Shown here: piece after piece, positions 10,429 through 39,391 of the stretch
Position numbering within the stretch: the first letter of the stretch is position 1
How the letters are laid out: each line of letters begins with the position of its first letter
Assembly: GCA_000165425.1 (NCBI GenBank)
Contig: CT868042.1
Location: forward strand, 1-64,000
DNA: 64,000 nt
Source of the DNA: Paramecium tetraurelia
Lineage: Eukaryota
Direction: 5' to 3'
Notes under the pieces: generated by a model
Seen by the model: the letters and a program-made list of their open reading frames with translations, nothing else
Told to the model about the DNA's origin: nothing
Database searches by the model: none
Made by a program: the position numbers and the translations under genes

Positions 10429-10898
10429 AAGTACAATTGATATTTCATTTTTAATAAAAAATATGATTTCTTATCAAATTCAAATATTATAAGACAATAT
10501 TTGTAGCCTCAGTGATTAAAACAAACTATTCTTTATAAAATTGAACTTCTTATAATTGATAATTAAATATTATATTATATAATAAATCTTCATCATTTAA
10601 ATGATAATAAATTCATATACTTGATGTTCTCTGAGTATTATTACATAATTTGTTGACAATGAGGTAAAAAAAGCAATAAAATAAGAAATATCATATGCAG
10701 TAGGAAAGTATAAAAGATTATATGTTTATTCACAAAACAAAATGTTTATTATTAAATAAATTAAAAATAAGAAATATTAACAATTTATAAATCGCAAACA
10801 AATTAAGTGAATTGTACTATCCAAATTTAGATGTTTAAAAAATAAATATATCTTTATTTTTTATTTTAATGATGTATGAATAATAGTAATTATTAAGA

Positions 10899-13800
10899 AT
10901 GAATAAACTATTGATATTTGTAAGTGTTTTATTGTTTATAAATTGTGAAACAATAAGGGTATTTCAGCCTTGTAAATGTATATAAATGCTCACTTAGGTT
11001 GATTGTTCTAAAAAGGAAGATTGCATATGGGATAAATAAAAAAATGAATGTATTGATTACACAATAGAAATGAAGATATAGCATTTTACAAATCATGCTA
11101 CATATTGCAATCAACATACAAGCAAAGAAATTTGTGTTTCAATTTACTAGTGCTCTTGGGATGATGAACTATGTACTCATTTCACAGGATGTACAGCCTT
11201 TGTTTATGATACACATGAAAAATGTAAAGCAATTTCACATCGATGCATATCAGATGGTTTGCACTGTGTCGAATTAGGTGATTGTAATAGTTACTTGAGT
11301 TCTATATCATGTATCTATAATTCAGTAGGTTAATATTGTTATTGGAATGCCACTTAGTCAAAATGCTAAGATGTAGATGAATGTTCAAAATTGCCATAAA
11401 CATTTGCCTCTGATTCTTAATGCAGGTCTCAATTTTCAACATGTACAGCTTAGATTGGAGGAGGATGTATTGAAGAAGGGAATAATTGTTAGGCTTAAGA
11501 TGATGAAATAAACTGTGTATATAATCAAAAAAATAAACAAATTTGTTTTTGGTTGGATGGAAAATGTTTTGATAAAATATGCGAAAATGCTCCATTGAAT
11601 TTAACAACAGATAAGGAATGTTAAGATTTCCTTCCTTCTTGTACAACTAAATAGGATGGTGGATGCATAACTAGGTTATTGTGTTCAACAAATTAAACAA
11701 AAGAAGCTTGTAACAAAGATGCTGTAGGAAATGATTGTTATTGGACAGGTAATAAATGCGTAGATAAGACATGTGAGAATGCTTTGAAAAATTATAAAAC
11801 AAATGAAGAATGTCAAGTATACTTAAATAATTGTATAACAAATGGATAAGGTTGTGTATTAAATACCAGTTGTGGAGCAGCAATAATTGAAGAAGCATGT
11901 GATAAAACTATTAATGGTAAATTATGTCATTGGGATGGATCTACTTGCTTGCCTAAGACATGTAAAAATGCAGGTCCATCCTATATTGGACATGTTGAAT
12001 GTTCAAAGTATATGGAGACTTGTACTGCATCTACAGATGAGATTACAGGATGCACAGATAGAACGTGTGATAATGCTCCAGTATAGTTTAATACGTACAC
12101 TTAATGTTTGAAATATTTATAAAATGGAAATTGTATTCCTAAAAATGGAGGAGGGTGCATAGTAAATACAAATTGCGAGAACATTAATATGAAAGAAGGT
12201 TGTGTCAGGGATGCAAATAATTAAGAATGCTTTTGGTGGAAGGACAAATGTTAATTGAAAATATGTGAAAATGCTCCTATAGAATTGAATACTCACGAAT
12301 AATGTAAGGAATTTATGCAAACTTGTACCATAGGATCAGATTAGAGATGTGTATCTCTGACTTGTGAAAATGTACAGGAGAGATCTAATTGTAACTATGA
12401 TTTGCATAATAAACTATGTGTTTTTAATGAAGGGTGCTTTAAGAAATTCTGTGCTTTAGCTCCAAAGAATTTACTAAACTTTAATCAATGCTAATCTTAT
12501 TTGTCATCGTGTACTGTAGATAATTCTGGGTCTGGTTGCATGGAGTTGCCGATTACATGCAACGCCATAACTAGAAGGGAAGGATGTTATTTAACTTCTG
12601 GATAATAAGAATGCGGTTGGTATAACGGAGAATGCATTGATAAATCTTGCTAAACAGCTCCTCCATATTTAAGCTCAACATTTGAATGTAATAATTATAT
12701 GGTTGGATGTGTTGTTAAGAATGATAGAGCTGGATGTATGAAACCACCGAATTCATGTTAATAACGAGAGCTTTCATAAAACTGTGAATATGAATAACCA
12801 TAAGGACTTAAACATAAATGCTTTTGGGGTTAGGATTAATATTTAAATGGGATTTGTCTTGATATAAAATGTGAAAATGTACACCTTTCTTTAGGGTTTC
12901 AGATCTCTTAAGATGCATGTTGGAATTTTTTTGGATTAAAATGCATTTTAGATTATTCTACATATAAGTGCATAATAAGACCGAATTCTTGTCTTGAATT
13001 AGGGTTTTAAGCTTGTACTTGGAGTGGAGTGTTAGAAGATGGTAGAAATTGTTATTGGGATATAGAATCTAGTTCTTGTAGATCCTATTAATGTTCCAGT
13101 ATTAGTATTTAAATATATTCTCACGATTTGTGCAATTAGATTATGTAATAATGTACTGTTAACTATTATGAATATGGTTGCACAGATCTATTAGAGTGTT
13201 CTTAGTATGGAAATCGAAATCAATGTGTTTTGTCTAAGGATCACATTAGGTGTGTTTGGGTTGATTCGAAGTGTATTGACATACCTTGTGAATAAGATAC
13301 TGAATCTTGGGATTTTTAATAATGCTAAAATATTTCTAAGAATTGTGTTCCAACATCTAAGAAATGCTATATAAAGAAATCAAGATGTGAAGATATTAAA
13401 TAGAAGAATTAATGTGAGTAAGCAACGATTGATTGGAGAAAGTATTGTATCTGGAATGGCACGAGTTGTGAAAGCTCGAATTTTCATGTATTTCCATTTG
13501 ACTGTTCTCTAATTAGAACTGATGGATTAACTTAAGGATATTGCTAATCTATAAATTAAGTTTGTTCAGTAAATAAATAAGGTACTTCTTGTATTTAGAG
13601 TGATTATTGCTACAATTATACAGAAGATTAATGTTTTTGGGGGCTGGATGGAGAATGTATTTGGTATCAGAATTTATGTAGGCAAAATATATATTGTGAA
13701 TATGCTAAACCACCTTATACTTACGATACATGTAGAGTTTTCAATTATAATTGCACTGTAAAGATTGATGGATCTGGATGTGTTGAAACTGTTTATAATT

Positions 13801-16800
13801 GCTAAAACACACCTTTTGAGAATTGTACAAATTCATTATCAGCTATTTGTTATAAAAAATATTATGAAAATGTCTGTATAAATGCTTGGTAACAGCCATT
13901 ATAATCTGCTGAGTGTACTTCAGTCTAAGGAAAAGGATTAACTTTTGCTTACTGTTTAAAGATAAGTTAAGGGTAATGTTCAGTTAATACATCTGAAACA
14001 AGTTGTATAACAATGAGAGGGTAGTGTTAGGAATATAGCTAAGAGGAGTGTGTATCAACTAATTATCAAAAGTGCATTTATTCAGAGACATTACTATAAT
14101 GTATTCCATTTTATATTGGAATTAACTCTTGCTCAGAAATAAAATTATATCAGCTAGAAGTTATATCAGATTTATTATGTAGAGAATTTCATGACTCATG
14201 CAGAGCACTTTGTGATGGATCTGGATGTTATTCAAATTATATACTTGATTGTGATAAGGCAATCTTACCATTTACATATTATAATTGCTTTGTATTTTCT
14301 CAATTCTGTTCAGTTAATGTTGCAAAGACCTAATGCATTCCTGCAAAAAACACATGCACTGAATATTCATTGATTGATTGTGTTCATGCAATTGATGAAG
14401 GTGAATGCATGGTAGTTGGAGAGTCTTGTGTCTAAAAGGGGTGTGATTATGTTTCAAATAGAATTAATACTCCTTAGGATTGCTACTAGATTTCAGCAAA
14501 TTGTGGTTACAGAGATGATGGATGCTAGAAAAAACGAGAATGTAGCTAATATTTATTGAAAAAATCTTGCATTATAAATTAATAAGATTAAGACTGTTTG
14601 TGGAATCCAAATACAGCAAAATGCGTAAATAAGTCATGTGAAAATGCTGAGGCTTCAGAATATTTTGATAGTCATGAGGAATGTATTTAAGTTGGAAGAT
14701 GCACTGTGAAGGCATCCAACGATGTTACAGTTGGTTAAGGATGTATTTCATGGGGACCTTGTAGATCATATGTAATTTAAGAATAATGTGTACGGAATTT
14801 ATTAAATGAAGATTGCATTTGGAATACTAATGTAATTCCCGCAAAATGCAGTGATAAGTCTTGCGAGACAGCCGAACTATTCAGAGATGATCATGTAGAG
14901 TGTTAGTTATATTTAAACAAATGTACTGTAAGAGTCATAGAAATAGATGGAATATATGTAAGTTAAGGTTGTATTTCCCTTAAACTTAGTTGTAATTAAT
15001 ATACTCATTAAAACTAGTGTATTATTGATGCATCTGGTAATATTTGTGGTTGGAATGGTAATTCATGTGAAAATCAAAGTTGCAAAACTGTACCAACTTA
15101 CTTAATCACTCCTCAATTGTGTTAATAGTATTTTGAGAATTGTACAATCAATTCTACTGATTCTGGATGCACTTAAACCCCAGATACCTGTGAAGAGATG
15201 ACTCAAAACTAATGTTATTATGGGGCTATTAACATCTAATAGCAAGAATGCCTTTGGGATCAAAGTTAAATGAAATGCATTCTTAAAACATGTGAATTAA
15301 TACCGATTTCATATTCAGAGTATGAATGTTCAAGTTTTCTAAATTATTGTACAATGAGTGCATAAAGATGTAGAAATGCAATTTGTGAGGACTTTTCATT
15401 AGCATTAGATGAACAATGCAGTAATATCATGTCAACTTGTACTACCAATGGGGTTTACTGTGTCAAAAGGGGTTCTTGTCTATAAGCATAATCAGAAGCA
15501 GGTTGTGTGACTGATGTTCAGGGGAGAGAATGTGCATGGATAAATACATAATCCCATTGCATAATCAAAAGTTGTGAAACAGCTCCATTAGATTTCAATA
15601 CTGAATAATTATGTTAAGGGTATTTTAAACCCAAAGAAGGGTCTTGCACAACTACTAAATCTGGAGGTTGTGTTCTCAAAGGCACTTGTTTTGATGCTAA
15701 CATATAGGCTGCATGTACAACCAGTAACATTGGAGAGCTCTGTGTTTGGGATGAAATCTTAAATATATGTAGAATCAAATAATGTTAAGACTATCTTGGT
15801 TCTACACATAAAGAATGTCAGAGTAAAAGACAATAATGTACTGTGGGATTAGGTTCAAGATGTGTAAATATTAGTACTTGTTAAGATACCAAATTCAAAG
15901 CGGCTTGCATCGAAGGTACTGATGGACCTTGTTTATGGATAAGTAGATATAAAAATAAAGATAATACGCTTGGTGCTTGTTTTCGATATGATTCATGCCA
16001 AAGTTTAAAATGGAACTCCCATGCTTTATGCTAAGAGATTTCTGCCAAATGCACAACTGATGGAGATTAATGTGTGCCAATTACAAATTGCAATCAAACT
16101 AATCTAAAGGGATGTGTAATTGGTGTTGATAACAAAGGAATTTAAACCTGTATTGTAACTACAGAGTCTTTAGATTCAAAATAGAATATCTGTAAATTAT
16201 TTAATAAATGTACAGATATTTATTATTTAACTCATGAACAATGTTAACAAGCATCCTCTCAATGTACCTCTGATTATCAAAACGGCTGCATTTCGTTAAA
16301 ATCATGCTTTGAATACAAAAATGGATAATGTCATATCAATAATATGGGAATTCTTAAAGATGGTAAGGGATAAATATTATCAACTGGAATCTGTGTTTGG
16401 GATTAGATGCAATAATAATGTCGAGATGAAGACTGCTCTGATCTCCCATTTATAACTCATCTTGAATGCTAATCAAGACTGACTTATTGCACCACTAATG
16501 GCAAAAAATGCATTCTCAAAGAACAATGTTTATCTTATTTGTCATAGGATGTTTGTTAGAATGCAGAAGGACTAGACGGTAAGTGTTTTTGGGAAACTGC
16601 ATATGATAAGACTTTGGAGAAATGTAGAAAAATGGAGTGTGAAGATATCCCAAATGGATATATCACTTCATCATGTAGAGTATTAGAAAATTGTATATCA
16701 GATGGCCTATAATGCATTAGTAAGGTTAATTGTTCATATTATAAATTTAAATAAAGTTGTAACTCTTAAGGATAGGATGGAATCTGTGTTTGGATTGAGA

Positions 16801-17198
16801 CAACAGAATAATGTAAATTGATGGAAAATTGTGAATCTGCAAACTAAGACTAAAATGCATGTAAACTAGCTAAAGATAGGTGTTATTGGGAGTCAGCAAA
16901 GTCTTTGTGTTAAAGTCATACATGTCAAACTTATTTTGCTTAAGTAGGAAGATGTAAGAATTTTTATTCATGGGATTATTAAAATATTAATTTATGTCAC
17001 TATCTTGGAAAAAAGTGTGTTTCCATCAATATTAACACTCTTAAATCTTAGGATTGTTACATCAAGACAGCCGAACATTATAGATGGGATCCATATAAAG
17101 GCTAATGTACTTCATGTGAAAAATCTGTTAGATTGATAACTGAATTTAGTGATATTCTTGGCCATCTATTACTAATATTATTCATATTGATCTATTGA
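10899..17198 (+). CDS. Paramecium surface (immobilisation) antigen family, Cys-periodic protein, 2099 aa, probably GPI-anchored
   Basis: 6300 nt from ATG to TGA, apparently intronless. Signal peptide MNKLLIFVSVLLFINC. Periodic C..W....C.DK.C.NAP....T...C...L..CT....GC units. Hydrophobic C-terminus ILGHLLLILFILIY. Confidence 0.9.
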
Positions 17199-18640
17199 AT
17201 AATTTGCAAATATAAATTAAATCATAAATTTAAACCAATATTTATTAATAGAATGCTTAGTTAAATATATAATAAATTTTTATATTAAACAATTCTAATT
17301 ATCTATTATGTGATAATTGTGCATTAAGAGATAATAATAATAATGTAATTGAGATTAAATCATATAAATAGCAACCACATATATGATGTTATAAATAGAT
17401 ATTAGAATAAAAATTAAAGGCTTTGGTCTTTAAGGAAATAACTATTATGATTGCTCATAAGATAATAATATATTATTTATTTCATGCTAATCAATTATTC
17501 CATCTTTTTCGGACTGATTCCATTATATTCTATGTAAATTATTCCAAATTAACGCCTTCTTACTCTTTTTATTCTGCTGCTTGTAATGCAGCTGATAATG
17601 CCATCAAAATCTACGACATGCTCTTATGTTAATACCAAGAGTTGTTTTTCTTTGCCGCACCGCATTAAAATGAGGCATCTTTAATAAAATATCCTGAACA
17701 GTCTTTTTAGTGATTTTCACAGAAAATATCGCCAAACTCACTGATGAATGATGGTTTTCCACATTATTTATGATGCCAATTTCTTGGACTCCCAGAATCA
17801 CATACGCAACCTTTAGGGCATTAAAATATCAAAGGAATAACTATTCCCTTATTAAGATTTTCTTTAGGTTAATCTTTAGATAACATATATTAAAAATAAA
17901 TAATCAGAAAGGACAAGGTCAACATATCTATATAATAAAATAATATTCTATTGCTAGTTTTTAATATCAATGTTTAAAAAATCTATAATTCTTTATATTA
18001 AATGGTTTCAGTCGATGGAATGCAAGTAGCAAATATTAGAGTTAACAATAATATCGAACTAATATGACCAATGAACATAAATTTAGAATTTAATAAAACA
18101 ATTCTTGTTTTCTCTCCATTTAATTAAAGTCTATTTACTTTAAAAAAATCATTTTTTTCTACAAATTCATAAAAATCTATCAAAAGAAATATATTTCAGC
18201 AATACTGGGGTGGGCTATGAAATTAAAACCTCCTAAAAGTACATAAATTTATAAACATTGATTTTCTATTGTGGCCCTTGTTATATTGATTGATTATCAA
18301 GGAGAGTTGAAATATTAATATAGTTCAATTATAATTTCTATTTTGAATGAATACAAAGTTTGATTCCAAATTATATACATCTTCCTTGAATATAAATTAA
18401 TTAACACATATTTTATTATTTAATTATAAAAATAATGAATTTAATAAATATCAATATTTGGCTTTCTTAGTTTATACCATCTTTAGCATTGTTTATTAAG
18501 TTAAATTTGAATATTAAGAAGGATTCAATTATTATTACTGTTATCCATCAAGCGAAAATACGGAATTCATACCTCCTTATGTATTATTATTAACAACTAT
18601 TTAACACAACTACTTGGAACCATAAGAATTGTATGATATG
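16622..18640. repeat. Source copy of an inverted segmental duplication (partner ~49015-50575)
   Basis: Reverse complement of 49.0-50.6 kb aligns by eye to the surface-antigen 3' end, the intergenic DNA, the small Cys/His gene, its upstream region and the vWA 3' end. Example: ctaaagataggtgttattgggagtcagcaaa is present in both. Confidence 0.9.
17491..17886 (-). CDS. Small Cys/His-rich (putative Zn-binding) protein, 131 aa, copy 1
   Basis: Intronless code-6 ORF MLSKDQPKENLNKGIVIPLIFQCPKGCVCDSGSPRNWHHKQCGKPSFISEFGDIFCENHQKDCSGYFIKDASFQC...RKRWNN. Frame supported by the paralogue at 49429. Confidence 0.88.
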
Positions 18641-20472
18641 CTTTTAGTAGCTTCCTTTGCTTAATTTAAATCCTATATGATTCCAGCACATTCTAAGACA
18701 ACTTTATTGTTTTTTTTCGATATTTGTATCGTCATATCATCGAGTAATCTTTAGGCATCTTCAAAATTATTTTATTCACAAGCTCTCTTTGCATCATCAA
18801 TTGCTTATGTTCCTTTTACTCTCATATATTGAGAATACACGTCTATGTTTTCCTCAATAACTCCTACATTCTCATTCTCATTAAATAGAGTTAAGTTCAG
18901 GGCAGCAGATTTTTGAATAATCTCTCCACTTAAAGGATCTTTCAATTTTAAACGGGCTTCAAGTACCTTTACAACTCTTTCTTGATCTTAAATTTTAGAA
19001 TAAATATAAGGTATCTAAATTTCAAATACAAAATCCTTTCTTGTACCTGATGCTAATTGAGGTATATTTATTTCATAGGCATGTTCTCTCTTTTTCCACA
19101 TATTCCCATATGTTTTTGAAATCTATACATCTTACAGAGGTTTTGTTAATGTTAAAGAAAGACTTATTTAAATTTATTCTGCTATCACAGAAACTATTCC
19201 TCCTAAAGCATGGGCAAAAAATTCATCTAATAATGTGATATCCTTAACATAATAAAAATTTCCATTCTTTAAATTACTTATAGATGTCATCATTTATGCA
19301 TCATGATCATCACCAAACCCAAATGTTGAGATTGTAAAAACTTCCTTAACATGTCTAATTTAATCAGATATCTCAAACAGGGCGTCTCCATCATGTCCAT
19401 CGGATAGCAAAAAAACAGAGGTCACATTGTTTCTATAGACCTTTTCCTTTAATTATTTAAATGCTATATAAGTAGCACTTGAAATTTTGGTCAATCCTTC
19501 TGCACTGATTTATGAAATAACTGCTTGAAAATATTGTTTATTTTTCTCTGTTAAACACTTTAATGGAGTTAGTCTTTATGCATGTTCATTAAAAGTAATG
19601 ATTTGTAGTCGGTCTTGTTCGCCTAAAAAATCAAGTAGTAGTAATAAGCTTTTTTTAACCATATTTATATTGTCTCCGCTCATGCTCATACTTTTGTCTA
19701 TTAAGCAGATCTAACGTAAATGATAATAAATACCAAATCAATTCCAATAGTTCTTTCAGTCATTTCTGTTTAATTTTCTTTTGTTTTAATACTTATCATT
19801 GCAGGAATATACTCTGATTTATAATTTGATACTTTGCAACTAGTTCTAAGGGAATTGATTTCAAAAGCAATAGATGATTATAAATCATATTTGTTTTTGT
19901 TTTATAATTTTGCACTTTGTTTTTGGATCAATTGTTCATCGTCATCACATCTTGGTATTTTCTGTATGTATTTATAATTCATTCTCATTTAAGGAGTCAA
20001 CATTTACATCTGAGGTTAGAATTAATCTGGAAACTGAATAGTACTTTAATTGTCTTTATATAAATTATTTTTTAATTTTGGAAGAGTATTTTGTTGAGTA
20101 TTTTATTAAGAAGGCTGAAATCTTAAAAGATTGCTTAATTGAACCTAATCTCCAATCTAGTGAAATTAGTTATTAAACATAAATTCTTGAACTTTATTGT
20201 TTTACTTGAAAGTAGGCATTCGATCCCAATTTACATTATTCTTCTGCTAATGCTACATCATACCAGAAAATCTTTCCGTATCTATATTTTTGAATATGTT
20301 TTGATTCATTTAAATATTCTGATTTTTCAATCCATTTAGAGTCATCTTTTGTGGCAATAAATTCTGTAAGTTATAGTCAAATTTGCTTGAAGAATTGTCC
20401 CTTACATCTCTATTTTTCGCTTTTAGGACCTTCCTGTGTTTGTGTCTAAAGTTAAGCTTGGATATTGTTCAT
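18451..20472 (-). CDS. von Willebrand factor A domain protein with Q/N-rich N-terminus
   Basis: DDDE motif, then GIDL|ICLIDKSMSMSG (MIDAS DxSxS), VFLLSDGHD, TFGFGDDHDA. 23-nt intron near 19712-19734. TGA at 18451. 5' exon structure uncertain. Confidence 0.85.
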
Positions 20473-23006: not shown

Positions 23007-23693
23007 CTTTAAAAAAATAAATTTATCAAAAAATATTATTGAATTATTATATTATCAATTAAAATTAGCAGATAGGGATATATTTGTGATAATTATAATT
23101 TCAACTATAATCTGATATAAATAAAGGATGATTCAAAACCTATAATTTAGATACTGTTAATAATAAATTTCGTATTTTTATTTCAAAGTTAATTTAAATT
23201 ATAACTTTAGAATCATTAAAATATTTTTAGAATAACCTGTGAGTTATAATTGATTGTTCAACTCTCAACAAAACTAAACAATAGTAGGAAAAGAGCCAAT
23301 TAATTCGAAATTAAATGAAAATTCAGATTTGCATATTTTTTGATATTTGTTTATTCATCTATATATGTATTTTAATTTTTTCTCTGAAAATCATGTGAGT
23401 GTCTAATTATATTTTATACAAGAGGGTAAATAGATAATTTAATAAAAGTTATATATTTAGATTGTTTATTAGTGTAAATTAATTCATCAATACATCATCA
23501 ATGATAATTTAAGCATTAAGAAATAATTAGAATGGTGTTAAAATGAGTTATTATGAATGGTATTTGCATTTTAATTATATAAAAATGAGTAATAAGATTC
23601 TCTGATGCAAACCGGTTGTTTTGTATTATAAAATTTAATACATAAATTTTAATTCCGGTGTTCCCTTTTTTAAAAATTAATATCTTAATAAAA

Positions 23694-24437
23694 ATGTTCT
23701 AAGTCTAATACGATGTAATTTCAGAGTTCGAACAGGATAGAAACAACAGTTTTTAGGATGAGGAATCCAATATCAACATATTCACTTAACATTAACTTGG
23801 CTTATTCAAAAAACCAAGTTACTTCGTTGAAAGTGAAGAGTTTAACCTAAAGAATAATTGTGAATGTTCTACAGCTGAGTAGACTGAGTCGTCTGAACAC
23901 TCTGACAACTCTTTTGAGGATATTCCATCACCAAAATTCCCTTCAAAGCAACTTCCTCCTCCAATTAATGCTGATCAACATTTGTTTAATTTGGAGATGA
24001 ATTACTATCCAAGCATCTCTCAGGAGAACTTTCTCTTGAATTTCATTAACTAAGAGGACCTCCAAAGAATAAAAATTGGTTTAGATTATAAGATTTTGGA
24101 TGATCCATAAACTTTAAAATTCGAAAATTGGGTTTAATAATTGTGCAACACTAAAGCCAATCAAAAAGAGATGCAAAGGAAACTGAAAGTAAAGAAATAC
24201 TTGGAGAAAAAGCACAGCAGAACTAGTTTTGAGAAGAAAGTGCATTATCAGATCAGATAGAAGGTGGCAGAGGAGAGACTGAGAATTAAGGGAAGATTCG
24301 TCACTTGGAAACAGGTACAATATCAATATATAGTGTAGGCTATTAAAATGTTAGAGAAATCGGATACTAAGAGAGAGTGGACTAATAGTGATTACTTCAA
24401 AATAAAGATCTTGTTAAATGAAAAGTACGGGCAATGA
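23694..24437 (+). CDS. CCT-motif protein
   Basis: Acidic/Ser-rich N-terminus, then RKLKVKKYLEKKHSRTSFEKKVHYQIRQKVAEERLRIKGRFVT, matching the CONSTANS/CO-like/TOC1 motif (R..KGRF). One intron near 24315. Confidence 0.88.
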
Positions 24438-24664: not shown

Positions 24665-25183
24665 ATGAACTCGAACCCTCCTCCTGTGATCATTTTGTAT
24701 AGGTAGAGTCTCAATGTAATTTAATTTAACTCACATCATAGGACCCAGAGAAGAAGAATTTCAGCAAGTTGTGGTAGTAAGAACCGATTGAAGTGAAAGA
24801 AGTATGAAATGATTATGATGAGTGAATAGTTTTTTTCAAATTTATTTCAGGCTTTGAAATATTCAAAAGATGGTATGGCACATACGATTTTCGAATTGGA
24901 GACTAGTGATTCCCATTCTGAGATTTCTGAGATTAATTGGAAAAATTAAGGATTTATTAGTGAATAGAGTAATTCTATGTAAGAATTGCTAAATATTTTG
25001 GAAATAGAGAAATTACCAATACAGTCTGCATTTTTGGAGAACAATTCAATAAATTCAATAGCGTATGATATAATTTAAAAGGTTAGATAATTGTGTGAAA
25101 GAATGAAAACTCTGAATATCAACGAAGAATTGAGTCACAAAATAAATGATAGCTTTCTCAAGATTTAAAAACTTCGTAAGTGA
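24665..25183 (+). CDS. Hypothetical protein (~145 aa)
   Basis: Continuous frame after removing three short GT..AG introns. TGA at 25181. Start uncertain. Confidence 0.6.
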
Positions 25184-25237
25184 AAAATAAACATTGATTT
25201 TTGATACTACAATAAATTTAATATTTAATATTAATTA

Positions 25238-27883
25238 ATGTCCTCGTATCACAGCAGCGATCCCTACGAATTGTATTATATCACCCATCAATTCCTTTAG
25301 TTTACATTATTGCAATGATCAAGACCAACATATTCATGATTAAAACAAATTGTTTATTGAAAATCTTGTGATTTATGATGTTAAATACTAGGTAAATAAA
25401 ATAAATCATTCATTCTAGATTCACCATCACAAAACAGTCCTACAAATATTCAATGGCCAGAATCAACTACTCAAAACTTTATGGGGTAATATCTCCTAAT
25501 TCCATTGTAGGGTTCTAAGATGTCCAATTTCCCACTCATTCAAACTTGGATTAAATAATCAAGGACTCAATTGAAAGCAATCTAGTTGTAACATAATCAT
25601 AACTAATTCAGCAAACTGTCTATAGTCAGACCTACCCAGGAGGTTAATTATTTAAGATTGGATACTAGAAGGAAATCGATGCCTGGTTAATCTATTCTAA
25701 TAATCTCACTATTGTGGCATAAAAGTCTGATGATTTATCCGAATTTGCATTCCAAAGATTTGATTCAGCAGTCTAAGTAGCTGAGTTATGGTTCAATATT
25801 TTGAATGAATGTAAATCAATATCTTTATTCTAGTCAGCCAAGAAAAAATTACTAATTTGAAATTTGATTTTCACAATCGAACTGTGTATGGTCATATCAT
25901 CAATCAAGAATCTCTGATCTATCACCCTGATGACATTCTACAATTTATTGGCATTGTCGACGTGAATTTCGAACAATCCCAATAATTATTCTGCTTTTAC
26001 GGATTACCACATCCAAAAACATCCTAATTCAAATTGCAATTAAAATTACTCTAAAAACACATAGAGAGAATTCAAAGAAGTGATATTGAATTAGAATCAG
26101 CAGGAGTTATCCTATATTTCCATGATCAATACTATGTTGTGCACACAGCTGAGTATTTAATTTACAAACATATTCAATCCATGTTATTGAATGAATAACA
26201 CATTGAAGGAGACTTTAAATAATTTGTAAAAGCCTTGTAAGTTAAACCCCCTAGACCATTTAAGTTTTATGAGAGCATATATGCAGAAGGCATGAAAATT
26301 CTGGAAAATTACAATAAGATGGAAAATACTATCAAATTTAATTTTAATGACTTCGTCACTATTATCTTGTACAACATCTTCAACAACAAGACTTTCAAAT
26401 GGAATCAATTAAGTTCTATTAAAGATTATAGAGCCTCTTGGGCATCCTATCAACCAAACTCACTAACAAGAATACCAGTTTATACAGGTGAAGATCTCTA
26501 AAAGAACCCAGAAAATGTGTTTTTAATTATACCTGTATGTGTTAATGGAGTTGGTGTGTCAACCTTTGCAAGAACATTTCAATCCTTCTATTCCCAAACC
26601 TAAATTGTCAGTGATATCTAAGATGCCAAAATTAGAGACAATTATGTTATTATCCTAGAACATAATCACACTCCAGAAGAAGCATAGTCCATCCTATCTA
26701 GATGTAGTTAATTTTACAACAAAATCATCCTGTATCCATATACCAAAAAGTCTTATAATCAATTGAAATTACCTTTTTCATATGAATTGCTTATTACTGC
26801 CATGAAAAGAACATGTACTTCTCTAGAAAAAGTTCAATATTTCGTTAAGAAGGCTAAGACATTTGAGAATTTTAAAGTAAGCTCACTTTAAGTAAATGGA
26901 GTAATTGAATTTCCATTTGTTGATGAAGATCTAAAGATTGATCATGAATACCTCGAGGATGACTTATTGGATGTATTTGATAACGATTCAAAAAAGAATT
27001 TAAATCAATTCTTTAAGAGTCTCAAAGAGATTCATCTTTAAAATTAGAATAATGATACTTTCGATGAGGAAATCAAGAATATTATTCACTAGTTATTCCC
27101 CAAAGTCACAAAGATTACTAAGCATCAACCAATTAAAGTAGACGATGTTGTGAGAAAGGAAAGCGAAGACATAGTAGTTCATGAGAAAAAGAATAAATTA
27201 CCCAAAAAGGAAAAGCATGTCCAATATGATCCAACTTATTTACCAAATTCACTTAGTTTCTAACTCAAAGGAGGATACAATATGAAAGATAGAATAAATA
27301 GATGGATTTTAGATTGTTTAGTAATTTAATAAATTTAATTATCTTTTAGAATGCAGGTAATTCACATTTTAAAAATGATGAAGTTTACCAAAAAATTGTT
27401 AACATCTTCTAGAAATAGACCTTTGAGAATGGTGAATAGCATTTCATCCCAGAAAAGGAACTCAAATTAGAGTTATTAACGATCAACTAAAATGATTAGA
27501 GTGTTAGATAGTTACCTTATTTCAAAGATTTTGTATAAGACAAAGAAGCAGAAATATTTATTAAGACCTTGTTTGTGAGTTTTGATGGTTTGATTGCTGG
27601 TCTTGCTCATTAAACATCATTGGCATGTTAAAGTCCTTATCCCCACATTCCATTTTATTTCAAAAATCTTAAAGTAAGAGACAGTCTTTCTGTGATATCA
27701 TAAACCATTTTATCAAATCAAGTTCTAAAGTAAGCATTTAAAGATGGACAACTCTCCAAAGTCACAAACCAACCACTGTTTTCCTCTGAAGACATTAAAT
27801 ACAGAGGCAAGACTTACAGAGTTTATGTAATTTCATTGTAAGATGGCATTAAAGTTAGTGCCATCTCTACAGATAGATTATGA
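25238..27883 (+). CDS. Trl1/plant RNL-type tRNA-ligase-like protein (ligase-kinase-2H phosphodiesterase) with degenerate active sites
   Basis: Ligase-like motifs (WLIYSNN, RTVYGH, ESAGVILYF, HTAEYLIYK), kinase-like LIIPVCVNGVGVSTF..IILEHNHTP..PFSYELLITAMKR, and CPD-like ..LIAGLAH..SPYPHIPF, in the canonical order. About five short introns. Confidence 0.7.
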
Positions 27884-27948
27884 TGTGAGTATTATAAAAA
27901 ATACATAAATATAGATTTATATCTGCTTATTTATCTATTTTAATAATG

Positions 27949-28903
27949 TCATTAAGCTGGTTTTTCAGCTGGTTTCTCAGCTGGTTTTTCAGCTGGCTTC
28001 TCACCTTAAGGTTGTTCTTGAGGTTTTTCACCACCTTCTTATGTCTAAGGATTTTATGCAGCTTCTTCAGCCTTCTTTTTTTCTTCCTCAGCTTTAATTT
28101 TATCTTCTTCTTCCTTTTTCAATCTCTCTTCTTCAGCTTTCTTTGCAGCTTCCTCTTCTGCAATTCTCTTATTCTCTGCTTCTATTTTCTCCCTCTCTTG
28201 TCTTTCCTTCTCTTCCTTCTCTTCTTACTCCTTTCTCTTTCTTTCATTTTCTTCTCTAATTGCTTCTTGCCTTGCAAATTCCTCTTCCTTCATCCTTATG
28301 TAAGCCTAAAAGGTTGGTTTTGATTTCTTTTCAATTGGTTTTTCTTGCTTCTTTTCTTTGGTTGTGGCATAACCCTTAACATCTTTGCCATTTTAGAGAT
28401 CATCAAGAAATCTTTTAATTCTCTCCACTGTAGGTGCAACACAAGGAAACAAACCAGAATTCTTTTTAGAGTAGATTATCTTGTCTACTTTAGATATTAA
28501 TGCATTACTTTAATGAGTTATTTCAAATGCTCCGATGGAAGGTTTCTAAATTGAATGATTAACTACGCAGAACGAATTTGGAATTGCAGCTTCAACAGCT
28601 AGTGTATTAAATAATAACTTATGTTACCATCCTTAAATTCATGATATAATTTTGCATATCGAAGTTCGTCATGCTGTGTACAAAACGAATGTGATTTTTA
28701 GCAATTGATGCAGACTTCAAAATTAATCACTATTGCATTTGGAGGAATTGGTTTATTAGATAAGTCTAAGTAATTCTTGGCAGGAGGCTTTTACTACTGT
28801 TGGGTTTGTTACTACTGTTACTATTCTTCTTTTGGCTTTTCTTCTCCTTCTTCTTTTGGTTTCTAGTGATGAATGAAATGGATACTTCTTCAGGAGGTTG
28901 CAT
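27949..28903 (-). CDS. Rdx (SelT/SelW/SelH-like) thioredoxin-fold protein with CxxC and a charged coiled-coil tail
   Basis: INFEVCINCQKSHSFCTQHDE...PSIGAFEITH...IYSKKNSGLFP, then an E/K/R-rich helix and EKPA repeats. TGA at 27949. Confidence 0.78.
27955..28002 (-). repeat. 12-bp coding minisatellite (EKPA x4)
   Basis: GAG AAG CCA GCT GAA AAA CCA GCT GAG AAA CCA GCT GAA AAA CCA GCT on the minus strand. Confidence 0.9.
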
Positions 28904-36611: not shown

Positions 36612-38174
36612 TCAAGGATAACTAATCTAAAATGTTTAATACCCTTGATGTTTCTCATCCCAAAAAACCAAATATTTTCCATCATTCGTGACAGCACCTT
36701 ATACTTTTATTCCATTAGATCGCAAAAAAGATTATAATTCTAACTTACTATTTAGAATATAAATAAATGATTAAAGCTTGAAATATAACAGCTATTTGTC
36801 CTTATTGTATAAAATTGGAAATAATCGTTAAGGTTAATCTTAGAATACTAAATCAACAAATTGGGTAATTTGTCCTTCTAAATCTTGAAATAGAAAAGCA
36901 CTATGATAATTCTCAGATATTAGGATAAATCTGTCTTCATCAATAAATTTAAGTTACGGTCTATTTATTTTAAACACCTACGTAACAAAGTGTTTGAATT
37001 AAAAACGATTTTGCTGACTTTATATTTTTTCCCAAACGATAATTTATTCCTAGCCCTGTACACCAGATATTGCACTATCTTTTGCACAAGATACTAAAAT
37101 GGTTTCCAATTCATTGAGGCTCAACGAACTTACTAATCGATCATGTTTTTTTAAATCATATTTTTTGCTTAATTGATCCTATTCATTGAACTACCAAACC
37201 TAAATTGAATTATCTGTGCTTCCAAAGAAAATTTATTCCTCCTTTAGGTCTGTAGAAATGCAAGTGAAACTGAAGTTATTCAGACATATAGTCTGCTAAC
37301 AACTCCATTGGGAGTTGAAAAACCAGGTTTTTATAGTCTAATCTGAACTAGAAATAAAATTATTTTTCAACTTTAAGAAAAACAAGTATTAAACAAAGTT
37401 TTCGTGACCTTTTAAAGTTTACATTAATTTAAGATGCCCATCCTTAAATTCCCATACTTTTATGAAGCTATCTAAAGTAGATATCATAATTGATCCTTGA
37501 TTATTAAAAGCCACTGCTCTACATTATTCCTTTTATTCCTTTAAATCCCCAATTTTATTGATATTAATTTTCTATTCTCGAATAATTATTTTTTTTTTTT
37601 ATTAATTATAACATCCAGAATAATCTATATTTACAACTTCCTTTAATATTAATTGTAAATCATTATAATCAGATTCTTTTGAAAACTAAGCACTAAGTTT
37701 TTTTTCAAAAGACTATTTATTCAAAATAATTTAATTAATAAGCTCCTTTTCATATTTACTTTCTTCATTCTTTCCTATTTGTTAAACCTCATCAATTAGG
37801 CTATACTCTAATATTTTATCTTTCATTGAAGCAAAATAAGTATCCCAAACATTCAAAATTTATTCTATTGTATTTAATTTTGTCAACATATTTTGCCTAA
37901 AAGATTCACATTTTTCCTTCAATTCGTTAAATTTTGTGATATTATCGTTTATTCTTTTATATAATTTTTCTCGATTTATTTATAATTTGTTTTCAATGAT
38001 TGATTTTACAGAGTCTAATCCAGAGATTTCCATTTTCTCACGTAATGTTTCTAAGCATATTTTACACACAATTCGTTTTTCTCCTTTGAAATTTGGACTA
38101 ATATCAGCTGCGATTATTTTTTTATTATGTTCATTACAGATATTTTCCTTCATAGAAAATTTTTTTTTTTCCAT
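36612..38174 (-). CDS. WD40-repeat protein with N-terminal CxxH...CxxC motif and coiled coil (520 aa)
   Basis: ICNEHNKKIIAADIS...RIVCKICL, helical segment, then CRAVAFNNQGS..IKVWEF, GHENFVQYL..SSSDQTIKTW, HDRLVSSLSLN. Ends WDEKHQGYQTFQISYP-TGA. 1563 nt, intronless. Confidence 0.85.
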
Positions 38175-39391
38175 ATATGAATAAACCTAATAATAATTTT
38201 TAAAACAATATATTTAATCTAAATTTAAAAGTTGGTAACTTTTATCTAAAAATACAATCATTTTGAAGAAAAAATTTTTATCAAGAAGGCTATAAAATTG
38301 GTAGTTGTTATTAATATTGCATGGGATAAACTTAATAAGAATAATTTAAGATTACTGCTTTTTGACTTACAAACAATTTATAATTTGAGCAATATTTCAT
38401 AGACCTATATTGTAAAAATCAACAAGGGATACTTTGTTACATCAACAACTATATCCGAAAGATAAATTTAAATTGGAAAGAAATTATTTCTAATGTTAAT
38501 GTTATATTAGGTTGAAGATTTACTTGAAATTTTGTCATGGGAGTTCTTCAAAAATGTCAAAGTATTATTTATTTTTGAGTTCTTAAGTTGTCAAAATCTG
38601 TTAAAATATTTTGAATATTATTTGAATCCATCAAGTACAAATGAGATAATTGATATAAGAGAAAACATAATATAATCAAACTTAAAAAGTCATGTTCAGA
38701 ACTTTTACTGTGAATCTTATATAATGGATTGAATAATAACAAGATTGAAAAATTAGGATATTATCATAAGACATTTTTTTGATTCTATAGGCATTTCAAA
38801 ATATTAATTAATATTAAGCAAAGGACAGACAGAATTATTTTATAAAAACAATTCACATGTGATATATTATATATTTTATATGTTTAATATGTAATTTAGA
38901 TAAAATTGTTATGAATTATTGATAATTTAATTAAGATTTACTTATAAAATTCGTTGTTAATGATTGGAGGAATTTAATTTTAGGCAATAAAGTAATTAAA
39001 TAGTATTATAATTTTGACTAAAATATTATTTTTTCCAATTTCACCCCAAAGGGTAATTCTTGTCAAGTGAATTTGAACAAAATTTAACAAAAAAGCTTAA
39101 CTATCTTTATTTAATTTGATATTTGAAGAAATTAATGAATGGAGAGAGATAATACAGAATTTCTTGCATAACGTAAAATTATGAAGTCTTCAAAATTACA
39201 TAATATAATAATATAGTCAATATTCCAAACAAAATCAAGTTGCTTTAATTATGAATCGATTCTTCGCTTCTAAATTTCAGCTACAAACAATTTCTAATTT
39301 AAGAATCCTTACTAAAATATACTCAAGATTTATTTATTTGTTATCAATAGCATAAATCAATTAATAAATAATCAAAATTATTAATAAACTA

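Follow-up and report, generated by a model that had tools for sequence, protein, structure and literature searches.

Can a protein keep the three-domain scaffold of an RNA repair enzyme, be maintained by evolution and expressed, and yet have lost the chemistry of all three of its modules? The question is raised by a gene of Paramecium tetraurelia, located on the forward strand at positions 25238-27883 of the first 64,000 nucleotides (nt) of contig CT868042.1 (assembly GCA_000165425.1), the whole stretch that we analysed and that is called the window below. A first-pass annotation had described its product as a homologue of the fungal Trl1 and plant RNL tRNA ligases, apparently dead in each of its domains. 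Fungal Trl1, of the Rnl6 clade, consists of a ligase, a P-loop kinase and a 2H cyclic phosphodiesterase (CPDase) in that order, and plant RNL has the same activities, likewise arranged. Our results lead to a related answer: the gene is probably a degenerate descendant of the three-domain RNA repair enzymes of ciliates, and its product would now be a non-catalytic pseudoenzyme.

The relationship of this protein, of 829 amino acids (aa), to known families emerges from profile comparisons. An exhaustive HMMER search with a profile of its orthologues from four sibling species, described below, returned 43 proteins at E<=1e-3, with E values down to 1.6e-15. The long matches outside Paramecium have their best stretch at residues ~68-420, and three short fragments correspond to the C-terminal domain: P0006 (29% identical, E 6e-21, both HxT motifs intact), P0008 (62% identical over the last 52 residues) and P0020 (40% identical over 81 residues, with a second 2H motif that reads PHIV). 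When the profile of the four orthologues (A2) was compared by hhalign with a profile of 13 intact relatives (A3), they aligned over 769 columns (residues 8-825 of the query) with a probability of 100% and an E value of 5.5e-42, so that homology to a protein of the ligase-kinase-CPDase type, as first proposed, stands. A profile of ligase-only relatives (A5) likewise aligned with residues 83-342 of the orthologues (99.5%, E 4e-23). Language-model features point in the same direction, as the nearest clusters are of the Trl1 type (PF09511, PF08303, PF08302) with a score of 0.97, two orthologues sharing 221 and 215 of 256 features; one Atlas cluster, composed mostly of Streptophyta and carrying PF08302, scores 0.94-0.95 against the orthologues.

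What the relatives themselves are was approached with Pfam, first in 22 of the 43 HMMER matches and afterwards in further relatives. Among the 22, PF09414 was met in seven, PF09511 in five, PF08302 and AAA_33 in three each and DUF7920 in two, and nine gave nothing. Scores above the gathering threshold were reached for PF09414 in P0007, P0015, P0035, P0057 and P0145, for PF09511 in P0015, P0043 and P0067, for DUF7920 in P0043 and P0140, and for PF08302 only in P0006 (26.2 bits for a cut-off of 23 bits); PF08303, the Trl1 kinase, was reached by none of the relatives scanned. The relatives thus carry PF09511 or PF09414, AAA_33 and PF08302 in that order, and the Pfam models of Trl1 recognise this ciliate family only marginally. 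On the structural side, the A5 ligase-only profile matches PDB entry 9QW7 (E 1.5e-6) at motifs III to V and at the N-terminal R-G...G..KFF element of the R62 region. According to the passages available from its description, 9QW7 is the ligase domain of Candida glabrata Trl1, the archetype of the Rnl6 clade, in which K110 is adenylylated and R62 contacts AMP; the match spans chain residues 173-308 of 384, and the C-terminal subdomain of Rnl6 (284-377) is mostly unaligned. It is in these stretches that the ciliate ligase domain can be aligned with that of fungal Trl1. The full-length A3 profile gave generic P-loop matches only (FtsY/SRP54 and PSTK) against the PDB, where P0006 alone had no match and P0199 a weak P-loop match only (E 0.027); the intact relatives show sub-threshold AAA_33 and PSTK kinase structure matches. 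As judged from these profiles, the kinase and CPDase domains are bound to known families less firmly than the ligase domain.

The profile of the 13 intact relatives further retrieved 173 proteins at E<=1e-5, the best 120 of which were examined by name; nearly all those listed are labelled hypothetical. Among the matches listed, those with a name all come from ciliates, namely Blepharisma (two), Tetrahymena thermophila (TTHERM_00052480), T. malaccensis (two), T. utriculariae, Stylonychia (two), Pseudocohnilembus (two) and Moneuplotes, and two more with numeric identifiers only presumably belong to Oxytricha. The Paramecium protein shares with these relatives the scaffold motifs W..I.S.N, WF..L, G..LYF, T.EY, PPRP, PFS...R and P.H, is homologous to them over its full length, and is shorter (829 aa against ~950-1200), with several conserved segments deleted. 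The family is an uncharacterised, ciliate group of predicted three-domain proteins combining an RNA ligase, a P-loop kinase and a 2H phosphoesterase. The proposal of a Trl1/RNL homologue is thus right as to type and domain order; the nearest relatives are this ciliate family and not fungal Trl1 or plant RNL proper. A plant-like PFS..L...M.R segment had also been pointed out, but this motif of the kinase domain is found family-wide in ciliates and reveals no special affinity with plants.

Are the catalytic residues really gone, and from all three modules? All the motif strings initially quoted were recovered at their sites, and all ten assignments of a motif to a position match family columns in alignments to 65-129 relatives. 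The three degenerate domains are backed by the family alignments and hhalign, with the ligase-only profile as further evidence for the first of them. In the putative RNA-ligase domain (aa 81-365, 25558-26459), motif I, K.NGE in the family, reads YPGGQ (QTYPGG, 25627), with a tyrosine, Y98, replacing the lysine (25633-25635); motif Ia, SKN in the family, has become S/C-N-N (YSNN, 25693), the lysine giving way to N120 (25699-25701); in motif III, GE has become GH (TVYGH, 25881), with H177 for the glutamate (25893-25895); in motif IV, EG has become AG or GG (SAGVILYF, 26097), with A246, either Ala or Gly among the orthologues, for the glutamate (26100-26102) and the glycine kept; and in motif V, KLKT.EY has become V/I-H-T.EY (VVHTAEY, 26136), the two lysines being replaced by V258 and H260 (26136-26144) and the preceding segment deleted. 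Upstream, the RRG aligned with R62 of 9QW7 has turned into HHH (residues 44-46, from 25422). In the P-loop polynucleotide-kinase-like domain (aa 380-520, 26502-26924), the P-loop G.GK[ST] reads GVGVST (26547), with V398 for the lysine (26556-26558), and the aspartate motif DKNHPP reads EHNHTP (LEHNHTP, 26655), with E432 for the aspartate (26658-26660); the third string quoted for this domain, PFSYELLITAMKR, lies at 26772. The PFS...R motif is kept there, and the conserved R..H.TL segment that follows it is deleted. In the 2H phosphoesterase domain (aa 651-829, 27315-27880), the first HxT has been replaced by K/R691-L-E693 (27464-27472, within LKLEL, 27461) and the second by H751-I-P/S753 (27644-27652, within PHIP, 27641), which retains its histidine and loses its threonine. 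The claim that catalytic residues are replaced in all three modules is borne out by these alignments, except that the second 2H histidine survives (PHIP or PHIS). Set beside fungal Trl1, the protein has neither the lysine that is adenylylated there (K110 in 9QW7) nor the P-loop lysine, and it retains a single one of the four HxT residues.

How unusual this is can be measured against the family. In the 34-sequence alignment from which these sites were tabulated (4 Paramecium proteins and 30 others), the motif I lysine is present in 30/30 non-Paramecium sequences, one of which reads KADGE, and YPGGQ in 4/4 Paramecium orthologues. A wider census, by hmmalign, covered 133 proteins of at least 700 aa, 129 of them from outside Paramecium. 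Among these 129, the ligase columns are occupied as expected in 127 (motif I lysine), 127 (motif Ia lysine), 128 (motif III Glu/Asp), 128 (motif IV Glu), 129 (motif IV Gly) and 129 (both motif V lysines) proteins, the kinase columns in 125 (P-loop lysine) and 126 (aspartate); each 2H histidine is found in 102 and the HxT columns hold His or Thr in 101-102, 23 proteins having no aligned CPDase domain. All three sets are intact in 96/129, and 19 more have intact ligase and kinase sets and no aligned CPDase. None of the 129 (0/129) has all three sets mutated, and one, P0077, has changes in ligase and kinase; the Paramecium protein is alone of its kind among the 133. Among 65 relatives, 89 columns reach an identity of 80% or more. 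The Paramecium protein retains 36 of these, chiefly W, F, Y, G, P and L, and has a different residue at 40 and none at 13, chiefly where the family has K, R, D, E or H. RKLREK has likewise been altered, to YKHIQSM, and the kinase domain is without its SSD.R and R..H.TL segments. It is from these losses in three modules that we infer the protein to work as a pseudoenzyme.

One way to escape this conclusion would be that the protein is still an enzyme, relying on non-canonical residues, such as another lysine or a one-histidine 2H site, or on a new chemistry. H751 is indeed kept, a lysine, K105, stands 7 residues past the former motif I, and the replacement residues are invariant in five species, as would be expected if they were important. 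Against this, motifs I, Ia, III, IV and V, the P-loop lysine, the kinase aspartate and 3/4 HxT residues have changed together, whereas the catalytic columns are 97-100% conserved in the 129 relatives wherever the domain is present. We thus hold continued catalysis to be very improbable.

If the protein is probably inert, is the gene more than a remnant? The host is a Paramecium of the aurelia complex and the window is macronuclear DNA, with introns of 23-29 nt, a local GC content of ~22-34% and long frames that are open under the ciliate code only. The gene comprises seven exons (25238-25272, 25301-25391, 25419-25485, 25511-25587, 25612-25810, 25834-27320 and 27350-27883, the last including the stop), from the ATG at 25238 to the TGA at 27881-27883, with TAA and TAG read as Gln, and its 2490-nt coding sequence encodes 829 aa. 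The model with five GTA..TAG introns gave 837 aa, and removal of a sixth intron brought it to 829 aa; the announced intact, spliceable frame of ~830 aa is thus real, supported by read-backed splices and gapless to four orthologues of 829 aa. Intron 1 (25273-25300, 28 nt, GTATT..TAG) has to be removed for the ATG exon to be in frame with exon 2; the resulting N-terminus agrees with the MS.Y.S.DPYEFLHYCN of the orthologues, and it is on them, not on reads, that this intron is based. The same holds for intron 2 (25392-25418, 27 nt, GTAAA..TAG), whose removal is required by the gapless alignment. Reads intervene for the next three introns, the only read-backed exon junctions. At intron 3 (25486-25510, 25 nt, GTAAT..TAG), five reads of X22 at 25486 carry the sequence of the next exon, and the orthologues agree. 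Intron 4 (25588-25611, 24 nt, GTAAC..CAG) was overlooked by the five-intron model; it ends in CAG and not TAG, has a length that is a multiple of three and contains no in-frame TGA, so that its retention would add 8 residues, which are absent from the orthologues, and seven X23 reads at 25612 show that it is spliced at least partly. Intron 5 (25811-25833, 23 nt, GTAAA..TAG) is marked by the clipped ends of seven X22 reads at 25834 and three X23 reads at 25810. Finally, intron 6 (27321-27349, 29 nt, GTAAT..TAG) is placed by the change of frame between two long open reading frames, by agreement with the orthologues and by a dip in depth, to 1.1-4.8 in the bin 27288-27391 as against 27-45 in the preceding one. 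An alternative start, the ATG at 25375, was considered and ruled out because the read-supported splice 25486-25510 breaks its frame.

The reads come from three oligo-dT, paired RNA-seq runs with the same species label, which were mapped to the gene. Splicing was deduced from clipped read ends and dips in depth, the joint table being empty owing to a read length of only 58 nt. On 25000-28100 the three runs gave 953, 1046 and 1151 reads, with a depth of ~10-45 over 25312-27911, and the first mate falls almost wholly on the '-' strand (depth on '+' does not exceed 1.1). The transcripts thus have the orientation expected for the gene, and reads of the convergent neighbour downstream run the other way. 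A second set of clipped ends occurs at 25613, where the upstream exon ends in ..ESKLI instead of ..ESNLV and the stretch QTVYSQTYPGG is kept. There are also seven RNA variants of partial frequency (at 25620, 26018, 26060-26061, 26102, 27275 and 27284), of which 5/7 are synonymous and the other two, I233V and M640I, conservative. This second family of ends and the variants may reflect an expressed duplicate, or a difference between alleles or strains.

Conservation tells the same story. The 829-aa product is 87-89% identical, without a gap, to proteins of 829 aa in four sibling species; the best matches of the large exon (86-88% identical to the four orthologues) are in P. primaurelia, P. sonneborni, P. 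pentaurelia and P. octaurelia. Across the five species 620/829 positions are invariant, identity being even over the domains (87-90%), and Y98, N120, H177, H260, V398, E432, E693 and H751 are fixed in 5/5. In a tree of 48 rows, the stem of the Paramecium clade measures 2.0 substitutions per site for a median end branch of 0.42, and the branches within the genus only 0.02-0.07. In a tree of the ligase domain (51 rows), the paths between degenerate copies (0.07-0.12) compare with 0.11 between the P. primaurelia and P. tetraurelia versions of the intact ligase-only paralogue. The sister of the Paramecium clade in the 48-row tree is P0007 (1115 aa, SH-aLRT 91), in which the ligase and the CPDase are intact and the kinase P-loop is gone; this loss of the kinase only, in the nearest relative, hints at a stepwise process.

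These data bear directly on the idea that the gene is a decaying relic, be it as a pseudogene or through functionless drift. The loss of every catalytic motif and the very long stem branch would agree with decay, and so would a decayed paralogue of 355 aa in P. sonneborni (P0005). However, an intact frame of 829 aa interrupted by six introns, gapless in four other species with three quarters of its positions invariant, within-genus branches as short as those of an intact ligase-only paralogue, transcripts that are spliced, and read variants that are mostly synonymous are not what a relic would leave, and we give this idea hardly any credence. P0005 appears to be a second, decayed copy of the gene: only parts of its middle and of its C-terminal domain align, the remainder being scrambled, and it probably arose in a whole-genome duplication and is now dying out. 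To judge from these alignments and reads, the gene of the window is real, transcribed and evolutionarily maintained. A homologue without catalytic residues, retained under constraint and expressed, is, on the same comparisons, what is called a pseudoenzyme.

The scenario that we favour for its origin would run as follows. The ancestor would have been a ciliate "heal-and-seal" enzyme that began with an ATP-dependent RNA ligase, continued with a P-loop polynucleotide kinase and ended in a 2H cyclic phosphodiesterase. On the Paramecium stem, the residues responsible for the chemistry of all three modules would have been replaced or deleted, and the scaffold of hydrophobic, Gly and Pro residues kept. 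The product would be unable to form lysyl-AMP, to bind or transfer the phosphate of a nucleoside triphosphate through its P-loop, or to hydrolyse a 2',3'-cyclic phosphate, and would act by binding, as a non-catalytic binding or scaffolding module.

Several points weigh against this scenario, or against parts of it. The tie to Trl1 is transitive, passing through relatives only: Pfam found nothing relevant at E<=1 on the exons of the window and had matches in 0/4 orthologues at E<=0.01, none of which reaches PF09511, PF08303 or PF08302, and no relevant PDB chain was retrieved by sequence or by the orthologue profile. The homology came to light only by way of intermediate sequences. The hmmalign census left the kinase and CPDase columns of P0001 and P0002 unaligned, and MAFFT and hhalign were used there; P0003 and P0004 are aligned in the census, and the MAFFT and hhalign alignments concur. 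The placement of P0007 bears a long-branch warning. That the fold is kept and the chemistry lost is read from sequence alone, and a non-canonical residual activity may reside in H751, the histidine of the second 2H motif, or in lysines near motif I such as K105. Lastly, the reads do not back the 5' end of the gene, the depth over exon 1 (25238-25272) being 0 to 0.2; it is near zero across this exon and the first 20 nt of exon 2 (25208-25320), and 5/8 and 7/8 of the leftmost molecules, in two runs, stop at 25320. The start codon rests on the N-termini of the orthologues and on the logic of the frame because exon 1 is almost without reads. The ends at 25320 could be a technical effect (58-nt reads, tiny exons, duplicates) or a transcript start that leaves the ATG outside the mRNA.

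If the gene thus encodes a pseudoenzyme, what could the protein do? We consider a non-catalytic role likely overall, be it as a scaffold or regulator of proteins or as a binder of RNA ends. The mode of action is a matter of speculation: the protein could possibly bind a protein partner or an RNA end in RNA-end processing, perhaps alongside the ligase-only paralogues, a proposal that we regard as tentative.

A more specific model, along the lines of the first-pass annotation, is that of a decoy or sensor, in which the dead domains would bind 5'-OH or 2',3'-cyclic-phosphate ends, or nucleotides, and sequester or flag them without processing. It is consistent with the retained three-domain architecture and the many scaffold residues kept, with the conservation of the kinase PFS...R motif and of the 2H histidine His751, and with isoelectric points (pI) that are normal for each domain when set against the family median (6.0-6.5 for 6.4 in the ligase, 8.7-8.8 for 9.06 in the kinase, 7.9-8.45 for 7.05 in the CPDase). 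On the other side, conserved basic residues lining the nucleotide and RNA sites are lost, for instance in the RRG to HHH change, whose family arginine aligns with R62 of 9QW7, and so are the motif V lysines, those of RKLREK (now YKHIQSM), the P-loop lysine and the SSD.R and R..H.TL segments. Binding of the old substrate is less than obvious because these basic residues round the nucleotide sites are gone, and we deem a decoy unlikely. An argument against RNA binding drawn from an acidic pI was also considered and dropped: the pI of the whole protein is 6.4 versus 8.1-8.8 in six relatives, five of them intact three-domain proteins and the sixth a ligase-only paralogue, but the like-for-like comparison of domains shows the usual charge, and the whole-protein value is therefore uninformative on RNA binding.

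Another model takes its starting point in the intact ligase-only paralogues of the genus. The search for active ciliate copies that had been suggested was successful in part, as it uncovered intact three-domain relatives in ciliates and intact ligase-only paralogues in Paramecium. An intact three-domain Paramecium protein was not found among the best 120 of the 173 profile matches, nor among all 90 matches of a second profile search (400-1353 aa), which also missed the degenerate orthologues and is thus limited for divergent members. The paralogues, P0035 (P. primaurelia, 469 aa), P0215 (P. tetraurelia, 469 aa) and P0212 (P. sonneborni, 524 aa), belong to the same superfamily and genus as the degenerate protein. 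Unlike it they keep all nucleotidyltransferase motifs (KANGEN, SKN, GEYCG, EGAVLYF, KLKTIEY); they have no kinase or CPDase domain and form a separate, older ligase-only branch. The inert protein might then be the targeting or regulatory subunit of an intact stand-alone ligase, in the manner of a "prozyme", the ancestral enzyme having been split in two. Such a pair may act on RNA ends from the ciliate-specific small-RNA or food-RNA pathways; we find this reading as a whole distinctly improbable.

Could the gene, finally, already be known under another name? PDS1 (gene model PTETG600032001) is a Paramecium-specific factor required for the RNA interference (RNAi) triggered by feeding of double-stranded RNA, and if the two genes were the same, PDS1 would acquire an RNA-ligase ancestry. 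The passages devoted to it in PMC4066745, PMC8059543 and PMC4330347 describe a gene without any BLAST or domain match outside Paramecium, found in all Paramecium species examined and expressed throughout the life cycle, which would fit. According to the same passages, however, PDS1 is a single-copy gene of 2 kb, whereas the gene of the window spans 2.65 kb and its reads suggest a second expressed copy or allele. Identity with PDS1 is thus, in our view, highly improbable.

Nor do we file the gene as a tRNA ligase: the domain order of Trl1/RNL is present in one polypeptide, and the motif I, motif Ia/III/IV/V, P-loop/Asp and two-HxT signatures are missing. It is because these catalytic signatures and the Pfam thresholds failed that the gene is, on the sequence comparisons, assigned as a degenerate member of the ciliate three-domain family, and the preferred reading remains that of a pseudoenzyme, working like nothing that can be named yet.

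The family also displays a variety of its own. Several three-domain paralogues per species occur in Tetrahymena, Blepharisma, Stylonychia and Pseudocohnilembus. In the census, single modules have been inactivated repeatedly within the family: a clade of five members (P0078, P0081, P0082, P0085 and P0088) has degenerate HxT motifs, paralogue 2 of Blepharisma (P0038) has neither HxT, and the P-loop lysine is lost in several proteins (P0007, P0043, P0156). Two proteins, P0019 (579 aa) and P0178 (675 aa), contain a ligase and a CPDase with apparently no kinase between them, and there are many ligase-only relatives of ~420-525 aa. Animal proteins of ~500 aa, some with DUF7920, are distant matches of the ciliate ligase profile (E 1e-12 to 1e-10), among them P0222 (Brachionus) and P0224 (Liolophura), which suggests that DUF7920 marks a wider eukaryotic group of RNA-ligase-like proteins.

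As for the surroundings of the gene, its 3' end lies within ~40 nt of that of a convergent neighbour on the reverse strand (27949-28889), which encodes a protein of the Rdx family (SelW/SelT-like) whose long tail, rich in Glu and Lys, finishes in PAEK repeats. A selenoprotein was considered for this neighbour and rejected, as there is no CxxU and the upstream exon carries an ordinary CxxC (VCINCQ). The window further contains, on the forward strand, a surface-antigen gene with an open reading frame of 2187 aa and 16 PF01508 repeats (10635-17198) and a gene for a CCT-motif protein (23589-24437), and, on the reverse strand, genes for a VWA-domain protein (18451-19737) and a WD40 protein (36612-38396). 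No tRNA or Rfam family was detected near the ligase-like gene.

Pseudoenzymes are well known, and so are ligases of the Trl1 type. In the full-text literature, outside which most subscription journals lie, we found no publication on the ciliate Trl1-like family or on an RNA-ligase pseudoenzyme in Paramecium, nor any multifunctional RNA repair enzyme in which all three centres are erased in a protein that is conserved and transcribed. The gene would thus provide a natural separation-of-function allele, in which whatever role is left to the ligase-kinase-CPDase scaffold must be non-catalytic, in an organism that permits knock-down by feeding. Our results also bring to light a large ciliate family of three-domain RNA ligases that carries hardly any annotation. 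Ciliates have a heavily RNA-guided genome biology, and the repeated loss of modules, together with the ligase-only and ligase-plus-CPDase forms, bears on how these organisms process broken RNA ends.

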